Shown: positions 3,360 through 7,389 of the stretch, in pieces
Layout: each line of letters begins with the position of its first letter
How positions within the stretch are numbered: position 1 is the first letter of the stretch
Assembly: GCA_035462935.1 (NCBI GenBank)
Contig: DATHTS010000296.1
Coordinates: 1 to 30,652 of the forward strand
Source of the DNA: Pyrinomonadaceae bacterium
GTDB taxonomy: Bacteria; Acidobacteriota; Blastocatellia; Pyrinomonadales; Pyrinomonadaceae
Direction: 5' to 3'
DNA length: 30,652 bases
Made by a program: the position numbers and the translations under genes
Notes under the pieces: generated by a model
Told to the model about the DNA's origin: nothing
What the model saw: only the letters and a program-made list of their open reading frames with translations
Databases searched by the model: none

Positions 3360-3528
3360 ACGTAGAACCGAAGGCAAAGAAAAATTTGTCGAGGGAGTTG
3401 ATTATTATTTTGAAAACGGCTTGATGGTTTTAACTGAACATTTTCTTATCAAGCGCGGCTATTGCTGCGAAAACGGGTGTCGGCATTGTCCTTATCCAAA
3501 AGAAAAGCGAAAAACTCAAAAATTATAG
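3346..3528 (+). CDS. Small Cys-motif protein (DUF5522-like), 60 aa
   Basis: ATG at 3346 follows AAGGAG (3327-3332) and overlaps the tlyA end by 14 nt. Sequence DYYFENGLMVLTEHFLIKRGYCCENGCRHCPY. The track ORF start at 3295 is probably too long. Confidence 0.8.
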   Translation: MKKVERRTEGKEKFVEGVDYYFENGLMVLTEHFLIKRGYCCENGCRHCPYPKEKRKTQKL

Positions 3529-3972
3529 AAGAAAAGTCTCCAGCTCCTGTTTTGGTTCTGCTGATATATGCGTTTCGACAAATGTTTCCGGTTTTGGCGC
3601 GCGGGCAATTGTAACCGGAACTTCAACCGCGCAGCAAACAACATCAACAAGGTTTTCATACTCCTTCTGCATCGTATCCTGGGAAGCCAGCCATATAAGC
3701 GTATCCTGTAAAATGCGTGCTGCGTTATCGTCTTCCGGTTCGACGATTTTATAATGCATCCATTTGCCCTCGCGCCTTGCTTCCACAACGCCCGCATTTC
3801 TCAAATACGCAAGATGCCGCGAAATTTTTGGCTGGCTCTCGCCCAAAACTTCCGTGAAAAAGCAAACGCAAATTTCATCCTGGCGCATAAGATTTAGCAG
3901 ACGAAGACGAGTCTTATCGGCTAGCGCCAGAAACAAAGTTTCCATATCTGATAGGATTTTTTCACTGCTCAT
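3523..3972 (-). CDS. arsR: ArsR/SmtB-family metalloregulatory repressor
   Basis: LADKTRLRLL, EICVC, SQPKISRHLAYLRNAGVVEARREGKW wHTH. It is divergent from the arsI-arsC operon. Confidence 0.9.
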   Translation of the reverse strand: MSSEKILSDMETLFLALADKTRLRLLNLMRQDEICVCFFTEVLGESQPKISRHLAYLRNAGVVEARREGKWMHYKIVEPEDDNAARILQDTLIWLASQDTMQKEYENLVDVVCCAVEVPVTIARAPKPETFVETHISAEPKQELETFLL

Positions 3973-4005: not shown

Positions 4006-4034
4006 TTGACAAATCATTTTAGCAAGAATATATT
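4006..4034 (+). promoter_or_regulatory. sigma70-type promoter of the ars operon
   Basis: TTGACA (4006-4011), 17-nt spacer, TATATT (4029-4034). Confidence 0.65.
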
Positions 4035-4042
4035 TGTCTTAA

Positions 4043-4064
4043 CATATACGTCAAAACGTATATG
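4043..4064. promoter_or_regulatory. Putative ArsR operator (9-4-9 perfect inverted repeat)
   Basis: CATATACGT-CAAA-ACGTATATG lies just downstream of the predicted -10 box, between divergent arsR and arsI. Confidence 0.65.
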
Positions 4065-4089: not shown

Positions 4090-4542
4090 ATGAAAACACA
4101 TGTTTCTTTAAATGTTAAGGATGTCGCGCAGAGCGTCGAGTTCTACAAAAAAATGTTTGGTATCGAACCGTTCAAGTTGAGATCGGACTACGCGAAATTT
4201 GATGTCGCTAACCCGCCGCTTAATCTTTCAATGACTCAGATTTCATTTGAAAGAGGCGGCTCGCTTTCGCATCTCGGCTTACAGGTCGAATCAACCGAAG
4301 AAGTTCTGGCAATCGGCAAGCGTTGGGTTGAAAATGGATTGACTACGCTGGACGAGATGAAGACCGATTGCTGCTACGCGCTTCAGGATAAAACCTGGGT
4401 GCAGGACCCGGACGGAAATCGCTGGGAAGTTTTCACGGTTCTGGAAAATACCGAGGGAATCGAGAATGCGGCTTCCGCTTGTTGCGCCCCGACGGAAAAA
4501 ACGGTTAGCATTACAAGTTCTGCAAAAACTTCTTGCTGCTAA
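4090..4542 (+). CDS. arsI: ArsI/CadI-family VOC dioxygenase (C-As lyase)
   Basis: VOC fold pattern with putative Fe ligands (KTHV, SHLG, WEVF) and the diagnostic vicinal-Cys motif TDCCYALQDKTWVQDPDGNRWE. Located in an ars context. Confidence 0.88.
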   Translation: MKTHVSLNVKDVAQSVEFYKKMFGIEPFKLRSDYAKFDVANPPLNLSMTQISFERGGSLSHLGLQVESTEEVLAIGKRWVENGLTTLDEMKTDCCYALQDKTWVQDPDGNRWEVFTVLENTEGIENAASACCAPTEKTVSITSSAKTSCC

Positions 4543-4551
4543 TCAAAACAA

Positions 4552-5727
4552 ATGAGCGAAAAATCTTTTTCAACTTTGACAGTTCACGCGGGCGAAGATT
4601 TGACGGAAAACCACGGCGCGGTTTCCGTTCCGATTTACAATGCGTCAGTCTTCGCCTTTTCCGATGCCGACACAGGCGCGGCGATTCATAATCATCAAAG
4701 GGAAGGTTATTTTTACGGGCGTTTGGGAAACCCGACGCAAACGGCATTGGAGAGAGCAATGCGCGAGCTTGAAAATGGGGAGGACGCGCTGGCGTTCGCT
4801 TCGGGGATGGCGGCGGTTTCGGCGGCGGTTTTGACGCTGGTAAAATCAGGCGATCATATTGTCGCGCCAGACTCGATGTATTCGACGACGACGAATTTTT
4901 TTAATGAATTATCCGAAAAATTCGGAATCGAAACGACTTTCGTTGATGCGGTTGATGCGGAAAATTATGCTGAAGCGGCAAGACCGGAAACAAAGATTTT
5001 CTGGCTTGAAACACCTTCCAATCCGCTTTTGAAAATTACGGATATTGAAGCGGTTGCGAAAATTGCCAAGGAAAAGAATATTAAAACGATTGCCGACAAC
5101 ACTTTTGCCACGCCGTTCAATCAGCGTCCGCTCAAACTCGGAGTTGATCTTGTCATTCACAGCGCGACGAAATATCTCGGCGGGCATAGCGATTTAACCG
5201 CCGGTTTGATTGTCGGGAAAAGGGAAATTGTTGAAAAAGCCAGATTACACACAACAAAACTTTACGGCGGAAATATCGCGCCGCAAACGGCTTGGCTGGT
5301 TTTGCGCGGGATAAAAACTTTGGCTTTGCGGATGGAAAGGCATAATCAAAACGCATCTGCAATAGCGAATATGTTGTCCGCTCATCCGAAAGTTAAAGCC
5401 GTTTTTTATCCGGGACTGGAAAAACATCAAAATCATGAAATTGCCGCAAAACAAATGAAAGGCTTTGGCGGGATGGTCGCGTTTGATGTCGGTGGAACTG
5501 AAAACGGAAAAAATCTGGTTAATAATGTCGAGATTTGCACTCTGGCAACATCGCTCGGCGGTGTGGAAACGATTATTCAGCATTCGGCTTCGATGACACA
5601 CGCTACGCTTTCACGGGAAGACCGCCTTAAAGCCGGAGTTACTGATGGTTTGATTCGTTTGTCAGTTGGCATTGAGGATGAAAAAGATTTGATTGCGGAT
5701 TTGGAGAACGCTTTAAATCAAATTTAG
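4552..5727 (+). CDS. PLP-dependent trans-sulfuration enzyme (cystathionine gamma-synthase/lyase, methionine gamma-lyase family)
   Basis: YGRLGNPT, FASGMAAV, ETPSNP, DNTFATP, HSATKYLGGHSD (PLP Lys), SLGG, RLSVGIE. Confidence 0.92.
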   Translation: MSEKSFSTLTVHAGEDLTENHGAVSVPIYNASVFAFSDADTGAAIHNHQREGYFYGRLGNPTQTALERAMRELENGEDALAFASGMAAVSAAVLTLVKSGDHIVAPDSMYSTTTNFFNELSEKFGIETTFVDAVDAENYAEAARPETKIFWLETPSNPLLKITDIEAVAKIAKEKNIKTIADNTFATPFNQRPLKLGVDLVIHSATKYLGGHSDLTAGLIVGKREIVEKARLHTTKLYGGNIAPQTAWLVLRGIKTLALRMERHNQNASAIANMLSAHPKVKAVFYPGLEKHQNHEIAAKQMKGFGGMVAFDVGGTENGKNLVNNVEICTLATSLGGVETIIQHSASMTHATLSREDRLKAGVTDGLIRLSVGIEDEKDLIADLENALNQI

Positions 5728-5730
5728 AGA

Positions 5731-6402
5731 ATGAATTTAGCGCGAAAACTAACGGCTGAGTTTTTAGGCACGGCTGGATTGCTGGCGGTTGTCGTCGGTT
5801 CGGGAATAATGGGCGAAAATCTGGCGGGCGGAAATGTCGCTATCGCATTGCTGGCGAACACCATTGCGACGGGCGCGGGTTTAGCTTTTCTGATTTTGAG
5901 CTTTATTGATATTTCGGGGGCGCATTTTAATCCGGCGGTAAGTTTGACTGAAGCTTGGCGCGGAAGTTTGAGCTGGCGCAATTGCTTGTTTTATCTGCAA
6001 GCGCAGATTTTGGGTGCTTTCGCCGGTGTCGGATTAGCAAACTTGATGTTTGAACTGCCGGCTTTTTCCGCCTCGACAAAAATCAGAGCCGGAAACGCGC
6101 AATTTTTAAGCGAATTTGTGGCAACATTTGGATTGATTGCCGTTATTCAGGCGGGAATTAAATTTCGTCCGAATTTAATTCCATTTATGGTCGCCAGCTA
6201 CATAACTTCGGCTTATTGGTTTACGAGTTCAACATCTTTTGCGAATCCGGTTGTAACTTTGGCGCGTTCGGCTTCGAATACTTTTGCCGGGATAAATCCG
6301 AAAAATATCCCGTCGTTTTTGATAGCGCAGCTTCTCGGCGCATTTGCGGCAACTTTGGTTTTCGGCTGGCTTTTAAAGGATGAGGAAATAGAAAATGTCT
6401 GA
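5731..6402 (+). CDS. MIP-family channel, ars-operon aquaglyceroporin (AqpS-like)
   Basis: About 6 hydrophobic segments with SGAHFNPAVS and TSSTSFANPVVT loops. Overlaps the arsC start. Confidence 0.88.
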   Translation: MNLARKLTAEFLGTAGLLAVVVGSGIMGENLAGGNVAIALLANTIATGAGLAFLILSFIDISGAHFNPAVSLTEAWRGSLSWRNCLFYLQAQILGAFAGVGLANLMFELPAFSASTKIRAGNAQFLSEFVATFGLIAVIQAGIKFRPNLIPFMVASYITSAYWFTSSTSFANPVVTLARSASNTFAGINPKNIPSFLIAQLLGAFAATLVFGWLLKDEEIENV

Positions 6403-6823
6403 AAAAATCTTAATACTTTGCACGGGAAATTCCGCTCGGAGCCAAATGGCGGAAGGGTTATTAAAATATATCTGCCGAAGTGAATATGAAGTTTTCAGCG
6501 CCGGAACAAAGCCTTCGGCTGTGCGCCCGGAAGCGATAAAAGCTTTGGCGGAAATCGGGATTGATATTTCCGGCAATCGCTCGAAATCGGTTGACGAGTT
6601 TGCAAACGCGGAAATTGATTACGTTTTAACGGTTTGCGACAACGCGCAGGAAAATTGCCCGTATTTTCCTGCGAAAACAAAATTGATTCATCAAAGCTTT
6701 GAAGACCCGGCGACGGTTGAGGGAGATGAAGAAACTCGTTTGAAAGCCTTTCGCGCCGCGCGCGACCAAATTAGGACTTATTTGGAAGAAACATTTCTTC
6801 CAATGGTTAAAGCAAATAAATAA
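6395..6823 (+). CDS. arsC: Thioredoxin-type arsenate reductase (LMW-PTP fold)
   Basis: P-loop LCTGNSARSQMAEG, CX6C pair TVCDNAQENCP, FEDPA. Confidence 0.9.
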   Translation: MSEKILILCTGNSARSQMAEGLLKYICRSEYEVFSAGTKPSAVRPEAIKALAEIGIDISGNRSKSVDEFANAEIDYVLTVCDNAQENCPYFPAKTKLIHQSFEDPATVEGDEETRLKAFRAARDQIRTYLEETFLPMVKANK

Positions 6824-6934: not shown

Positions 6935-7291
6935 ATGGCAGCAGTAGCAGCACCGTCCGTTGAATTAAACGTAAGTTCAGCGGCGGCGGAAGAAGTGAAA
7001 AAATTTATGGCGAACGAAGAAGATTTACCGGAAACGGCTGGTCTTCGCGTGCGCGTCGTTCCGGGCGGATGTTCGGGATTTCAATACAGCCTGAATATAG
7101 AAGAAGAATCGCGGCAAGGCGATTTCATCGTTGAAGAACACGGCGTCCGGCTTTTCGTTGATATGTTCAGCGCGCAGTATCTGAACGGCGTAACGATTGA
7201 TTACACATCGAATATGATGGGTTCGGGCTTTACATTTGAAAACCCGAATGCGACCGGCGGATGCGGATGCGGTTCTTCGTTTACGGCTTAG
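6935..7291 (+). CDS. A-type Fe-S cluster carrier (HesB/IscA/ErpA family)
   Basis: LRVRVVPGGCSGFQY and ENPNATGGCGCGSSF motifs. Confidence 0.95.
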   Translation: MAAVAAPSVELNVSSAAAEEVKKFMANEEDLPETAGLRVRVVPGGCSGFQYSLNIEEESRQGDFIVEEHGVRLFVDMFSAQYLNGVTIDYTSNMMGSGFTFENPNATGGCGCGSSFTA

Positions 7292-7352: not shown

Positions 7353-7389
7353 AAAAGATGAAGGCAATTTGTCTTCATCTTTTTATTTT
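7353..7389 (+). terminator. Intrinsic terminator after the IscA-family gene
   Basis: AAAAGATGAAGGC-AATTT-GTCTTCATCTTTT stem-loop (one G-T pair) followed by a T-rich tract. Confidence 0.65.

Follow-up and report, generated by a model that had tools for sequence, protein, structure and literature searches.

The ars operon of a soil acidobacterium encodes, between the genes for the C-As lyase-type protein ArsI and an MIP-family channel, a PLP enzyme that matches neither canonical methionine gamma-lyase nor the cystathionine lyases and synthases; by sequence, its clade is a new branch within the methionine/cysteine lyase family. This new branch may break down arsenic-containing amino acids. The operon was found in the window, the whole stretch of 30,652 nucleotides that was analyzed, which derives from a Pyrinomonadaceae MAG; public runs containing the stretch were of soil DNA only, with no RNA runs among them. 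Open reading frames and family scans place a divergent arsR first, followed by arsI, the Cys/Met-family PLP enzyme, the MIP channel and arsC:

3523 to 3972, minus strand: arsR, divergent ArsR/SmtB repressor (Pfam HTH_5, NF033788, translation)
4006 to 4034, plus strand: sigma-70-like promoter of the arsI-PLP-MIP-arsC transcript (TTGACA, 17 nt, TATATT; 11/12 matches)
4043 to 4064, strand not applicable: candidate ArsR operator, a perfect 9-4-9 inverted repeat (100% complementary pair)
4090 to 4542, plus strand: arsI, C-As lyase-type VOC dioxygenase (NF041414, 172.2 bits against a cut-off of 116)
4552 to 5727, plus strand: gamma-family (Cys/Met metabolism) PLP enzyme of 391 aa, P0001 (PF01053, 497.6 bits)
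5731 to 6402, plus strand: MIP-family channel with NPA and NPV motifs (PF00230, 87 bits; translation)
6395 to 6823, plus strand: arsC, thioredoxin-coupled LMWP-type arsenate reductase (PF01451; TIGR02691 at 126.7 bits, under the cut-off of 174)

The spacing of the four forward genes (9 nt, 3 nt and an 8-nt overlap) had been given in a preliminary description of this DNA and is exact by ORF coordinates. The single ArsR operator predicted there likewise corresponds to one promoter and one perfect palindrome, both within the arsR-arsI intergenic region. The candidate operator reads CATATACGT-N4-ACGTATATG and lies directly 3' of the -10 box, while the promoter of arsR runs on the other strand from 4054 to 4027 and overlaps the arsI-side promoter. 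A scan of the window revealed no terminator-like site between arsI and arsC. Among relatives, an alignment of 37 ars-linked intergenic regions shows conserved -35 and -10 blocks, and a pattern matching the promoter is present at 35 of 39 ars-linked loci versus 0 of 44 ars-free loci. Palindromes of the candidate-operator type, with the consensus ACATATATGT-N4-CGTATATGA across ars-linked loci, were found in 34/39 ars-linked and 3/44 ars-free intergenic regions. The translated ArsR of the window carries an E-I-C-V-C-F-F site in its DNA-binding helix and a C-terminal V-V-C-C pair. When the 39 ars-linked relatives with an ArsR hit are compared with the 44 ars-free ones, the CVC site is retained in 38 of the former and one of the latter, and the CC pair in 37 and none, respectively. 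We conclude that arsR and arsI-PLP-MIP-arsC make up one predicted ArsR-controlled unit. The PLP gene sits in it as an ars-operon gene would, co-directional, tightly spaced and 3' of both a Cys-bearing ArsR and a conserved candidate operator, and the arrangement is not due to chance, since the same order recurs in dozens of species-level genomes. Downstream of arsC lies erpA (6935-7291), which may be read through from the ars unit because the sole strong terminator is at 7353-7383; we left it out of the unit because its adjacency to arsC is not conserved among relatives.

The partners of the enzyme are those of arsenic detoxification. Residues H4, H61 and E113 of the window ArsI, together with C94-C95, match the metal triad (H5/H62/E115) and the substrate pair (C96/C97) of the Bacillus enzyme (PMC12607644). 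It is the only ArsI found in the 86%-complete assembly, and its activity remains a prediction since the NF041414 model also covers CadI. The MIP protein, also the only one found in the assembly, is AqpS-like in its fold, its two NPA-type motifs, its ars-operon position and its interchangeability with Acr3: MIP genes occupy the same place in the operon at 15 related loci and Acr3 genes at 25. No Acr3 was found in the window assembly, and the channel is likely the exit for As(III). ArsM was not found in this genome either.

The enzyme matches PF01053 at 497.6 bits (gathering threshold of 27), with residues 7-388 covering profile positions 1-380 of 381, and scores under every NCBIfam equivalog cut-off. 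Its best solved relative is L-methionine gamma-lyase (EC 4.4.1.11; Citrobacter freundii and Pseudomonas putida; PDB 2RFV and 1GC0), matched over the full length with E = 5e-125. The two share the fold-type-I gamma-family architecture and a catalytic set that is complete in the window enzyme: the PLP lysine, the Asp at the pyridine nitrogen, the stacking Tyr, the alpha-carboxylate Arg, the Tyr/Arg phosphate clamp and the Ser beside the Lys. K207, D182, Y110, S204, R369 and Y55 are invariant in all 91 clade members, and R57 is kept in 85 of the 91. The chemistry is probably gamma-elimination as well.

The determinants of specificity tell these enzymes apart. Methionine gamma-lyase has a Tyr-Gly-Cys loop and a Lys240-Asp241 pair (PMC11568061). 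The window enzyme reads D-S-M-Y110-S-T-T-T in translation, with Y-S-T where the Citrobacter freundii enzyme has Y-G-C, which bears out the earlier remark that an MYSTT loop replaces the usual YGG or YGC; the loop of the Lys-Asp pair is shorter by one residue and has no Asp. Thr takes the place of the Val that precedes the catalytic Ser, and His that of the lid Phe. With TIGR01328 (L-methionine gamma-lyase) at 485.5 bits, below its cut-off of 549.7, and with both the YGC loop and the Lys-Asp pair absent, we rejected an identity as L-methionine gamma-lyase. Cystathionine gamma-lyase and gamma-synthase (human CGL, PDB 2NMP; E. coli MetB, PDB 1CS1; and the paralogue on contig C602 of the same genome) belong to the same Pfam family. 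In human CGL, E59, R119 and E339 hold the distal half of cystathionine (PMC6073527), and the aligned positions are F54, N115 and T333 in the window enzyme. These identities were also rejected, given the absence of the three specificity residues and scores of 443.7 and 420.8 bits with the best models, under their curated cut-offs of 594 and 513. The paralogue on C602 is a canonical YGG enzyme of 46% identity that covers housekeeping, so the enzyme of the operon is not a sole transsulfuration enzyme that merely happens to sit there.

The altered pocket positions are His46, Ser111, Thr112, Asn115 and Thr333. At least 93% of clade members carry H46, T112, T333, Q245 and Q343, a clade signature that is rare elsewhere. 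Alignment to solved relatives assigns these residues to three places: the Tyr loop, the vicinity of the catalytic Ser339, and the mobile lid, which corresponds to residues 46-61 of the Citrobacter enzyme. The M-Y-S-T-T loop is present in 110 of the 119 closest metagenome relatives, and 76% of 187 non-clade relatives carry Gly at the position equivalent to T112. The aligned residues show a predicted substrate pocket that has been remodelled, with the hydrophobic and acidic specificity residues of the methionine and cystathionine lyases giving way to polar hydrogen-bond donors.

In the tree of the enzyme, the clade is a discrete group with a support of 100 and a long stem. A search of 1.84 billion representatives recovered a single 50%-identity cluster for it, at 580 bits, with the next full-length single-domain relative at 396. 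The clade is present in 90 of the 219 Pyrinomonadaceae genomes searched, and no clade-level match was found in other families of the class. Ars genes are present at 45 of its 91 loci; arsI lies directly upstream of the PLP gene in 40 of these 45, and arsC is present in 40 of them. The three deep lineages are all ars-linked, and one of them has arsI-PLP-MIP-arsC amid other chromosomal neighbors. The most parsimonious history on the tree is an origin of the clade within a Pyrinomonadaceae ars operon. Outside the clade, no ars neighbors were detected around 63 more distant relatives or around 8 hits of the class search at 53% identity or less, and none were seen around a Holophaga relative. The nearest outgroups, a clade of about 52% identity and an acidobacterial paralogue, have housekeeping or unrelated neighbors that are uninformative on the ancestral role.

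The linkage is nevertheless far from strict. The preliminary description had called for an ars-linked clade enriched for arsI: a discrete clade with linked basal branches and arsI upstream was indeed recovered, but 46 of the 91 loci have no ars structural genes, only the PLP enzyme and an ArsR-like regulator in which both arsenic-binding Cys sites have been lost. The enzyme and its signature residues persist equally at these loci. Conversely, 20 ArsI loci elsewhere in the family (10 from genomes lacking the enzyme and 10 from genomes with an ars-free enzyme locus) all have arsR and arsI without the PLP enzyme, with arsC in 19 and a recognized transporter in 16; across the class, 298 of 401 genomes have ArsI, and most of these lack the enzyme. 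To describe the gene as 'hard-wired' into an arsenic operon was thus an overstatement. Two of the 20 enzyme-less loci lie at the same TlyA locus, and the TlyA-GlpK locus is found in three states: ars genes with the enzyme, ars genes without it, and the enzyme without ars genes. The tree requires at least nine changes between ars-linked and ars-free states. A single derived lineage uniting all ars-free loci was rejected by the AU test (p = 9e-5), for a group defined after the tree had been seen. The divergence of the PLP gene relative to its housekeeping neighbor TlyA is 1.06 in ars-linked and 0.98 in ars-free loci, similar ratios that indicate that the gene is maintained in ars-linked loci behind the arsenic-sensing repressor.

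We tentatively propose, as the favored of several readings though not a probable one, that the enzyme gamma-eliminates an arsenical amino acid such as arsinothricin and thereby feeds ArsI and the channel. The most likely substrate would be an amino acid with a polar, arsenic-bearing gamma-substituent, either pentavalent arsinothricin or hydroxyarsinothricin; the earlier suggestion named 'reduced' arsinothricin, but chemically the pentavalent form is better suited to gamma-elimination. The substrate would form an external aldimine on K207, and the C-gamma-As bond would break with the electron pair leaving on arsenic, so that As(V) would depart as methylarsenite, or in the case of hydroxyarsinothricin as arsenite, and the carbon skeleton would exit as 2-oxobutyrate and ammonia. 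ArsI, encoded directly upstream, would convert methylarsenite to As(III), which would leave through the MIP channel (Acr3 in relatives), with ArsC channeling arsenate to the same exit. Trivalent arsenic released in this way would bind ArsR as well and switch on the operon.

A lyase for arsenical amino acids would fit both the polar pocket and the logic of the operon, and methionine gamma-lyase is known to gamma-eliminate sulfoxide analogues (PMC4717258). If the proposal holds, its functional analogue would be ArsN1, the arsinothricin N-acetyltransferase of ars operons, an enzyme of unrelated fold that acetylates rather than breaks down its substrate. ArsN1 was an amino-acid-modifying ars-operon enzyme whose role was puzzling until arsinothricin was identified and the enzyme proved to act on it (PMC6465285). 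ArsN1a was found above cut-off in none of the 219 Pyrinomonadaceae genomes, against 9 in other families, a complementary pattern that is confounded by phylogeny and for that reason lends weak support only to functional replacement. The literature searched on methionine gamma-lyase or cystathionine enzymes in ars operons, and on arsinothricin in connection with degradation or pyridoxal, contained no description of such an enzyme. We know of no precedent for C-As bond cleavage by a PLP-dependent enzyme. That the clade degrades arsinothricin-type antibiotics, and so performs the first PLP-dependent C-As cleavage, distinct from acetylation by ArsN1, is a proposition we hold as doubtful. Arsinothricin is itself pentavalent and would not release ArsR, a point against the arsenical reading. 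Against it also stand the 46 ars-free loci, their Cys-less regulators and the ars operons of the family that lack the enzyme.

A role in sulfur metabolism is somewhat unlikely. The enzyme would be a homocysteine or cysteine desulfhydrase, or another sulfur amino-acid gamma-lyase, that supplies H2S, persulfide or thiols under arsenic stress, products that would capture As(III) or methylarsenite, or restore thiols consumed by arsenic. The typical reactions of the family yield H2S, methanethiol or cysteine, replacement of the Glu equivalent to T333 in human cystathionine gamma-lyase increases H2S production from Cys (PMC6073527), and a useful sulfur enzyme would survive local loss of ars genes, as at the 46 loci. 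However, the determinants for methionine (YGC, Lys-Asp pair) and for cystathionine (E59, R119, E339) are all absent, and a generic supplier would need no clade-specific remodelled pocket in a genome that already has a canonical paralogue. The operon contains no other sulfur-assimilation genes, and no such ars gene was found described in the literature searched.

The linkage to ars genes could also be purely historical, if a duplicated gamma-lyase for a non-arsenical gamma-substituted amino acid (methionine sulfoxide, sulfone or sulfoximine, homoserine esters, or canavanine-like compounds) had been inserted between arsI and the transporter gene and had retained a role that has nothing to do with arsenic. 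The three states of the TlyA-GlpK locus, which show free separation of the enzyme from the ars genes, the repeated state changes with rejection of a single ars-free clade, and the equal retention of signature residues at ars-free loci all agree with such a history, which we regard as unlikely. The deepest lineages are ars-linked, and the change of the pocket falls on the stem branch along which the gene joined the operon; moreover, the arsI-PLP-MIP-arsC cassette has stayed whole against another chromosomal background. Purifying selection acts on the gene in 45 genomes in which it lies behind an arsenic-sensing repressor and a conserved candidate operator, a position that would silence any function needed without arsenic. 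Gamma-replacement, in which As(III) or an arsenic-thiol nucleophile would be added to an activated homoserine to give an arsenical amino acid or conjugate in the manner of cystathionine gamma-synthase or O-acetylhomoserine sulfhydrylase, is highly improbable: it is common in the family (synthase and sulfhydrylase models match at 370-440 bits), with an arsenite nucleophile it would formally run the proposed elimination backwards, and phospho- or acyl-homoserine could fit the polar pocket, but the operon has no homoserine-activating gene, methyltransferase or amino-acid exporter, and the partnership with ArsI and As(III) exits indicates breakdown and not synthesis.

Apart from the enzyme, the operon has an ordinary ars backbone: an ArsR with Cys sites, ArsI, an ArsC of the thioredoxin type and an exit by way of a channel or Acr3. 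Operons of the arsR-aqpS-arsC type are known from Sinorhizobium meliloti and those of the arsR-arsI-acr3-arsC type from Bacillus (PMC4435449, PMC6138428, PMC12607644). The latter type also occurs in the same acidobacterial family. Unlike these operons, that of the window has a gamma-family PLP gene between arsI and the transporter gene, and unlike methionine gamma-lyase the enzyme is encoded in an ars operon. Genes for a membrane protein with a Cys-Cys tail and for a dioxygenase of the TauD family are further additions in some relatives.

To our knowledge, every ars gene characterized so far serves an arsenic-related function. The precedent of ArsN1 teaches that an odd 'amino-acid' ars gene may betray an arsenical natural product not known before (PMC6465285). 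In the present case, an entire gamma-family PLP clade was apparently born in an ars operon, with its pocket rebuilt from hydrophobic and acidic to polar. Action on arsenical amino acids would represent a new C-As cleavage chemistry, a new route of resistance to and degradation of arsinothricin-type compounds and a new step in the way abundant Acidobacteria cycle arsenic in soil, while a supplier of sulfide or thiols would represent a new accessory logic for ars operons. The 45 ars-linked and 46 ars-free loci constitute a natural comparison set.

The PLP enzyme is encoded within a compact ars operon in which arsI, the enzyme gene, the channel gene and arsC are spaced by 9 nt and 3 nt and then overlap by 8 nt, a layout that had been proposed in the preliminary description and is borne out by open reading frames and family scans. 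The operon and its control region comprise the following features:

3523-3972, (-) strand, arsR, divergent (ORF listing and family scans)
4006-4034, near-consensus promoter between arsR and arsI
4043-4064, perfect 9-4-9 palindrome between arsR and arsI
4090-4542, arsI (NF041414, 172 bits; cut-off 116)
4552-5727, Cys/Met-metabolism PLP enzyme (PF01053, 497.6 bits)
5731-6402, MIP channel (family scan)
6395-6823, arsC, LMWP-type (family scan)

The ArsR carries a C-V-C site in its DNA-binding helix and a Cys-Cys pair at its C-terminus, and residues H4, H61 and E113 of ArsI, together with C94-C95, match the metal triad and substrate-binding pair of the Bacillus enzyme (PMC12607644). No terminator-like site was found across the arsI-to-arsC stretch of the window. 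A gene for an ErpA/IscA-type Fe-S carrier (6935-7291), a neighbour not conserved among relatives, lies 111 nt past arsC. Read-through from the ars promoter may reach it, because the single strong hairpin resembling a terminator (14 pairs, 7353-7383) sits beyond it. The host is a soil MAG from the family Pyrinomonadaceae (Acidobacteriota); one ArsI and one MIP were found in its 86% complete assembly, where no Acr3 was found and neither ArsN1a nor ArsM appeared above cut-off.

The PLP enzyme retains the full gamma-family catalytic set (K207, D182, Y110, S204, R369, Y55 and R57), and its top solved relative is the methionine gamma-lyase of Citrobacter freundii (E = 5e-125). Identity as a methionine gamma-lyase was rejected, the NCBIfam equivalog model scoring 485.5 bits against a cut-off of 549.7; every other NCBIfam equivalog cut-off was missed as well. 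The hallmarks of methionine lyases, Y-G-C and a Lys-Asp pair (PMC11568061), are missing: the loop reads Y-S-T instead of Y-G-C, and the Lys-Asp loop lacks the Asp and is shorter by one residue. In the human cystathionine enzyme the distal half of cystathionine is held by E59, R119 and E339 (PMC6073527), which are replaced here by F54, N115 and T333. The host genome encodes, on a different contig, a canonical Y-G-G paralogue that is 46% identical and clears a cystathionine gamma-synthase equivalog cut-off, and the operon copy is therefore an additional, specialised enzyme.

The preliminary description had asked whether an ars-linked clade of this enzyme exists, and trees revealed a discrete clade with a support of 100, a long stem branch and three deepest lineages that are all ars-linked. 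Among 1.84 billion representatives at 50% identity, a sole one groups with the enzyme (65% identity, 580 bits), the next full-length single-domain relative scoring 396 bits. A search of 401 genomes of the class Blastocatellia placed the clade enzyme, always in single copy, in 90 of 219 Pyrinomonadaceae genomes; no clade-level homologue was found in other families of these 401 genomes. A sister group at about 52% identity lies in another family. The M-Y-S-T-T motif recurs in 110 of the 119 closest metagenome relatives. When 91 clade members were compared with 187 other relatives, 13 positions were conserved in at least 90% of the clade and at most 8% of the others, several of them within documented active-site elements. 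These include I45, H46 and N47 in the mobile N-terminal lid (residues 46-61 in the Citrobacter enzyme, ordering upon ligand binding; PMC9307983), S108 and T112 of the Tyr loop together with S111, I242 and Q245 beyond the Lys-Asp loop, and T333 immediately N-terminal to the catalytic Ser; methionine lyase has Val at the position of T333, and human cystathionine lyase has Glu339. Overall, the alignment shows hydrophobic or acidic residues giving way to neutral hydrogen-bond donors, and such a pocket would suit a polar gamma-substituent, probably an oxo-bearing one.

Neighbourhoods were fetched at about 5 kb per side for all 98 class-search hits and scored by tblastn with the window's own proteins, a procedure that very divergent ArsR or ArsC could escape. 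Ars structural genes accompany the enzyme in 45 of 91 clade loci (window included), with arsC in 40, Acr3 in 25 and MIP in 15. The preliminary description had asked for neighbourhood counts with arsI: the gene is found immediately upstream, in the same orientation, in 40 of these 45 (40 of all 91). The remaining 46 loci lack ars structural genes and usually read TlyA, ArsR-like regulator, PLP gene, GlpK. With the same queries no ars genes were seen near 63 relatives from many phyla at 50% identity or less, nor near 8 class-search hits at 53% or less.

The Cys state of the regulator follows this split almost perfectly. C-V-C is present in 38 of the 39 ars-linked loci with an ArsR hit versus 1 of 44 ars-free loci, and the C-terminal Cys-Cys in 37 of 39 versus none of 44. 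Palindrome and promoter are kept in 34 and 35 of the 39, respectively; these forms are essentially missing from ars-free loci, which retain a related CATAT/ATATG-rich palindromic site (judged by eye) and regulators with the relic states C-V-N, C-V-S, C-V-F, C-V-Y and C-V-A. Cys-less ArsR-family regulators still adjoin the PLP gene upstream in ars-free loci (e.g., L164, L168, L177, L205-L210).

The enzyme had been described as hard-wired into the operon, which is too strong. Of the 401 class genomes, 298 have an ArsI homologue, and among these are members of genera that lack the enzyme (in one such genus, 34 of its 39 genomes); these tallies include four unpublished genomes (G130, G199, G358, G374), none with a clade locus, and the conclusions do not depend on them. 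By hand count, ArsI is encoded elsewhere in 35 of the 46 genomes that hold the enzyme in an ars-free locus. All 20 ArsI loci fetched away from the enzyme had arsR and arsI and no enzyme, with arsC in 19 and a recognised transporter in 16; two lie at the same TlyA locus. The 10 that come from genomes whose enzyme locus is ars-free all form complete operons of arsR, arsI, Acr3 or MIP, and arsC. On these counts, the enzyme is an optional module placed between arsI and the transporter gene.

One deep lineage (64-66% identity) has arsI-PLP-MIP-arsC in a different chromosomal setting, with no TlyA or ArsR nearby in three of its four members. Ars-free loci are nested at several positions of the tree, requiring at least 9 state changes; their grouping as a single clade was rejected (AU p = 9e-5), the group having been defined only after the tree was inspected. 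The simplest reading is that the clade originated inside an ars operon and that local ars genes were then lost repeatedly, the enzyme and an arsenic-blind regulator being retained. The enzyme in ars-free loci is not decaying: divergence relative to TlyA is 0.98 versus 1.06 in ars-linked loci, and signature residues are retained. One copy of the enzyme has an in-frame TGA. The clade locus L089 preserves a decaying ars operon, with truncated arsI (89 aa, no Cys pair; 4289-4558) and arsC (107 aa; 5519-5842), an ArsR whose Cys sites are lost, and an intact PLP gene (79% identity).

The operon is most coherently, if tentatively, read as a breakdown pathway in which the enzyme would gamma-eliminate an arsenical amino acid such as arsinothricin. 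In gamma-elimination the bond electrons go with the leaving group, and on chemical reasoning pentavalent arsinothricin would release methylarsenite, a step for which we know of no precedent. The remaining carbon skeleton would yield 2-oxobutyrate and ammonia, ArsI would then remove the methyl group, As(III) would exit via the channel, and the released trivalent arsenic would induce through ArsR. Methionine gamma-lyase does gamma-eliminate sulfoxide analogues (PMC4717258), and ArsN1 is a precedent for arsinothricin selecting for dedicated ars genes (PMC6465285). A supply of sulfide or thiols by the enzyme is a less likely role, against which stands the fact that every known determinant for sulfur substrates has been lost. 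That the enzyme is a passenger of unrelated function appears less likely again, since 45 genomes keep the gene under purifying selection downstream of a repressor that senses arsenic; a gamma-replacement role is improbable, and a small share of the probability falls to none of these readings. In the literature searched, no paper was found that counts a gamma-family PLP enzyme among the ars genes.

Further genes recur in ars-linked loci. A multi-span membrane protein of 184 aa, which matches nothing in Pfam or NCBIfam and has Lys-Cys-Cys as its last residues, occurs directly 3' of the PLP gene in 10 of 45 (L010:5424-5978, L014, L018), with Acr3 or MIP on its other side; the vicinal Cys tail suggests binding of trivalent arsenicals, and the protein is possibly an organoarsenical permease. 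A TauD/TfdA-family Fe(II)/2-oxoglutarate dioxygenase gene (113 bits) between arsI and the PLP gene (L010:4414-5427, with a counterpart in L018) faintly resembles gamma-butyrobetaine and trimethylaminoethylphosphonate dioxygenases, and hints at more organoarsenical chemistry in such operons. An HhH-GPD glycosylase-like gene recurs within or just after ars operons (L013:7176-7886, L015, L089, L125, L127, L153, L196, L201, L257), directly 3' of the PLP gene in 5 of 91 loci; several clade loci have the order arsI-PLP-glycosylase, and in one operon without the PLP enzyme the gene directly follows arsI. Finally, in some PLP-adjacent ArsI proteins (L009:5438-5998, L013:5410-5988, L015:5411-5989) about 22 extra residues are inserted behind the first beta-alpha unit, and the tails are longer and rich in Cys.
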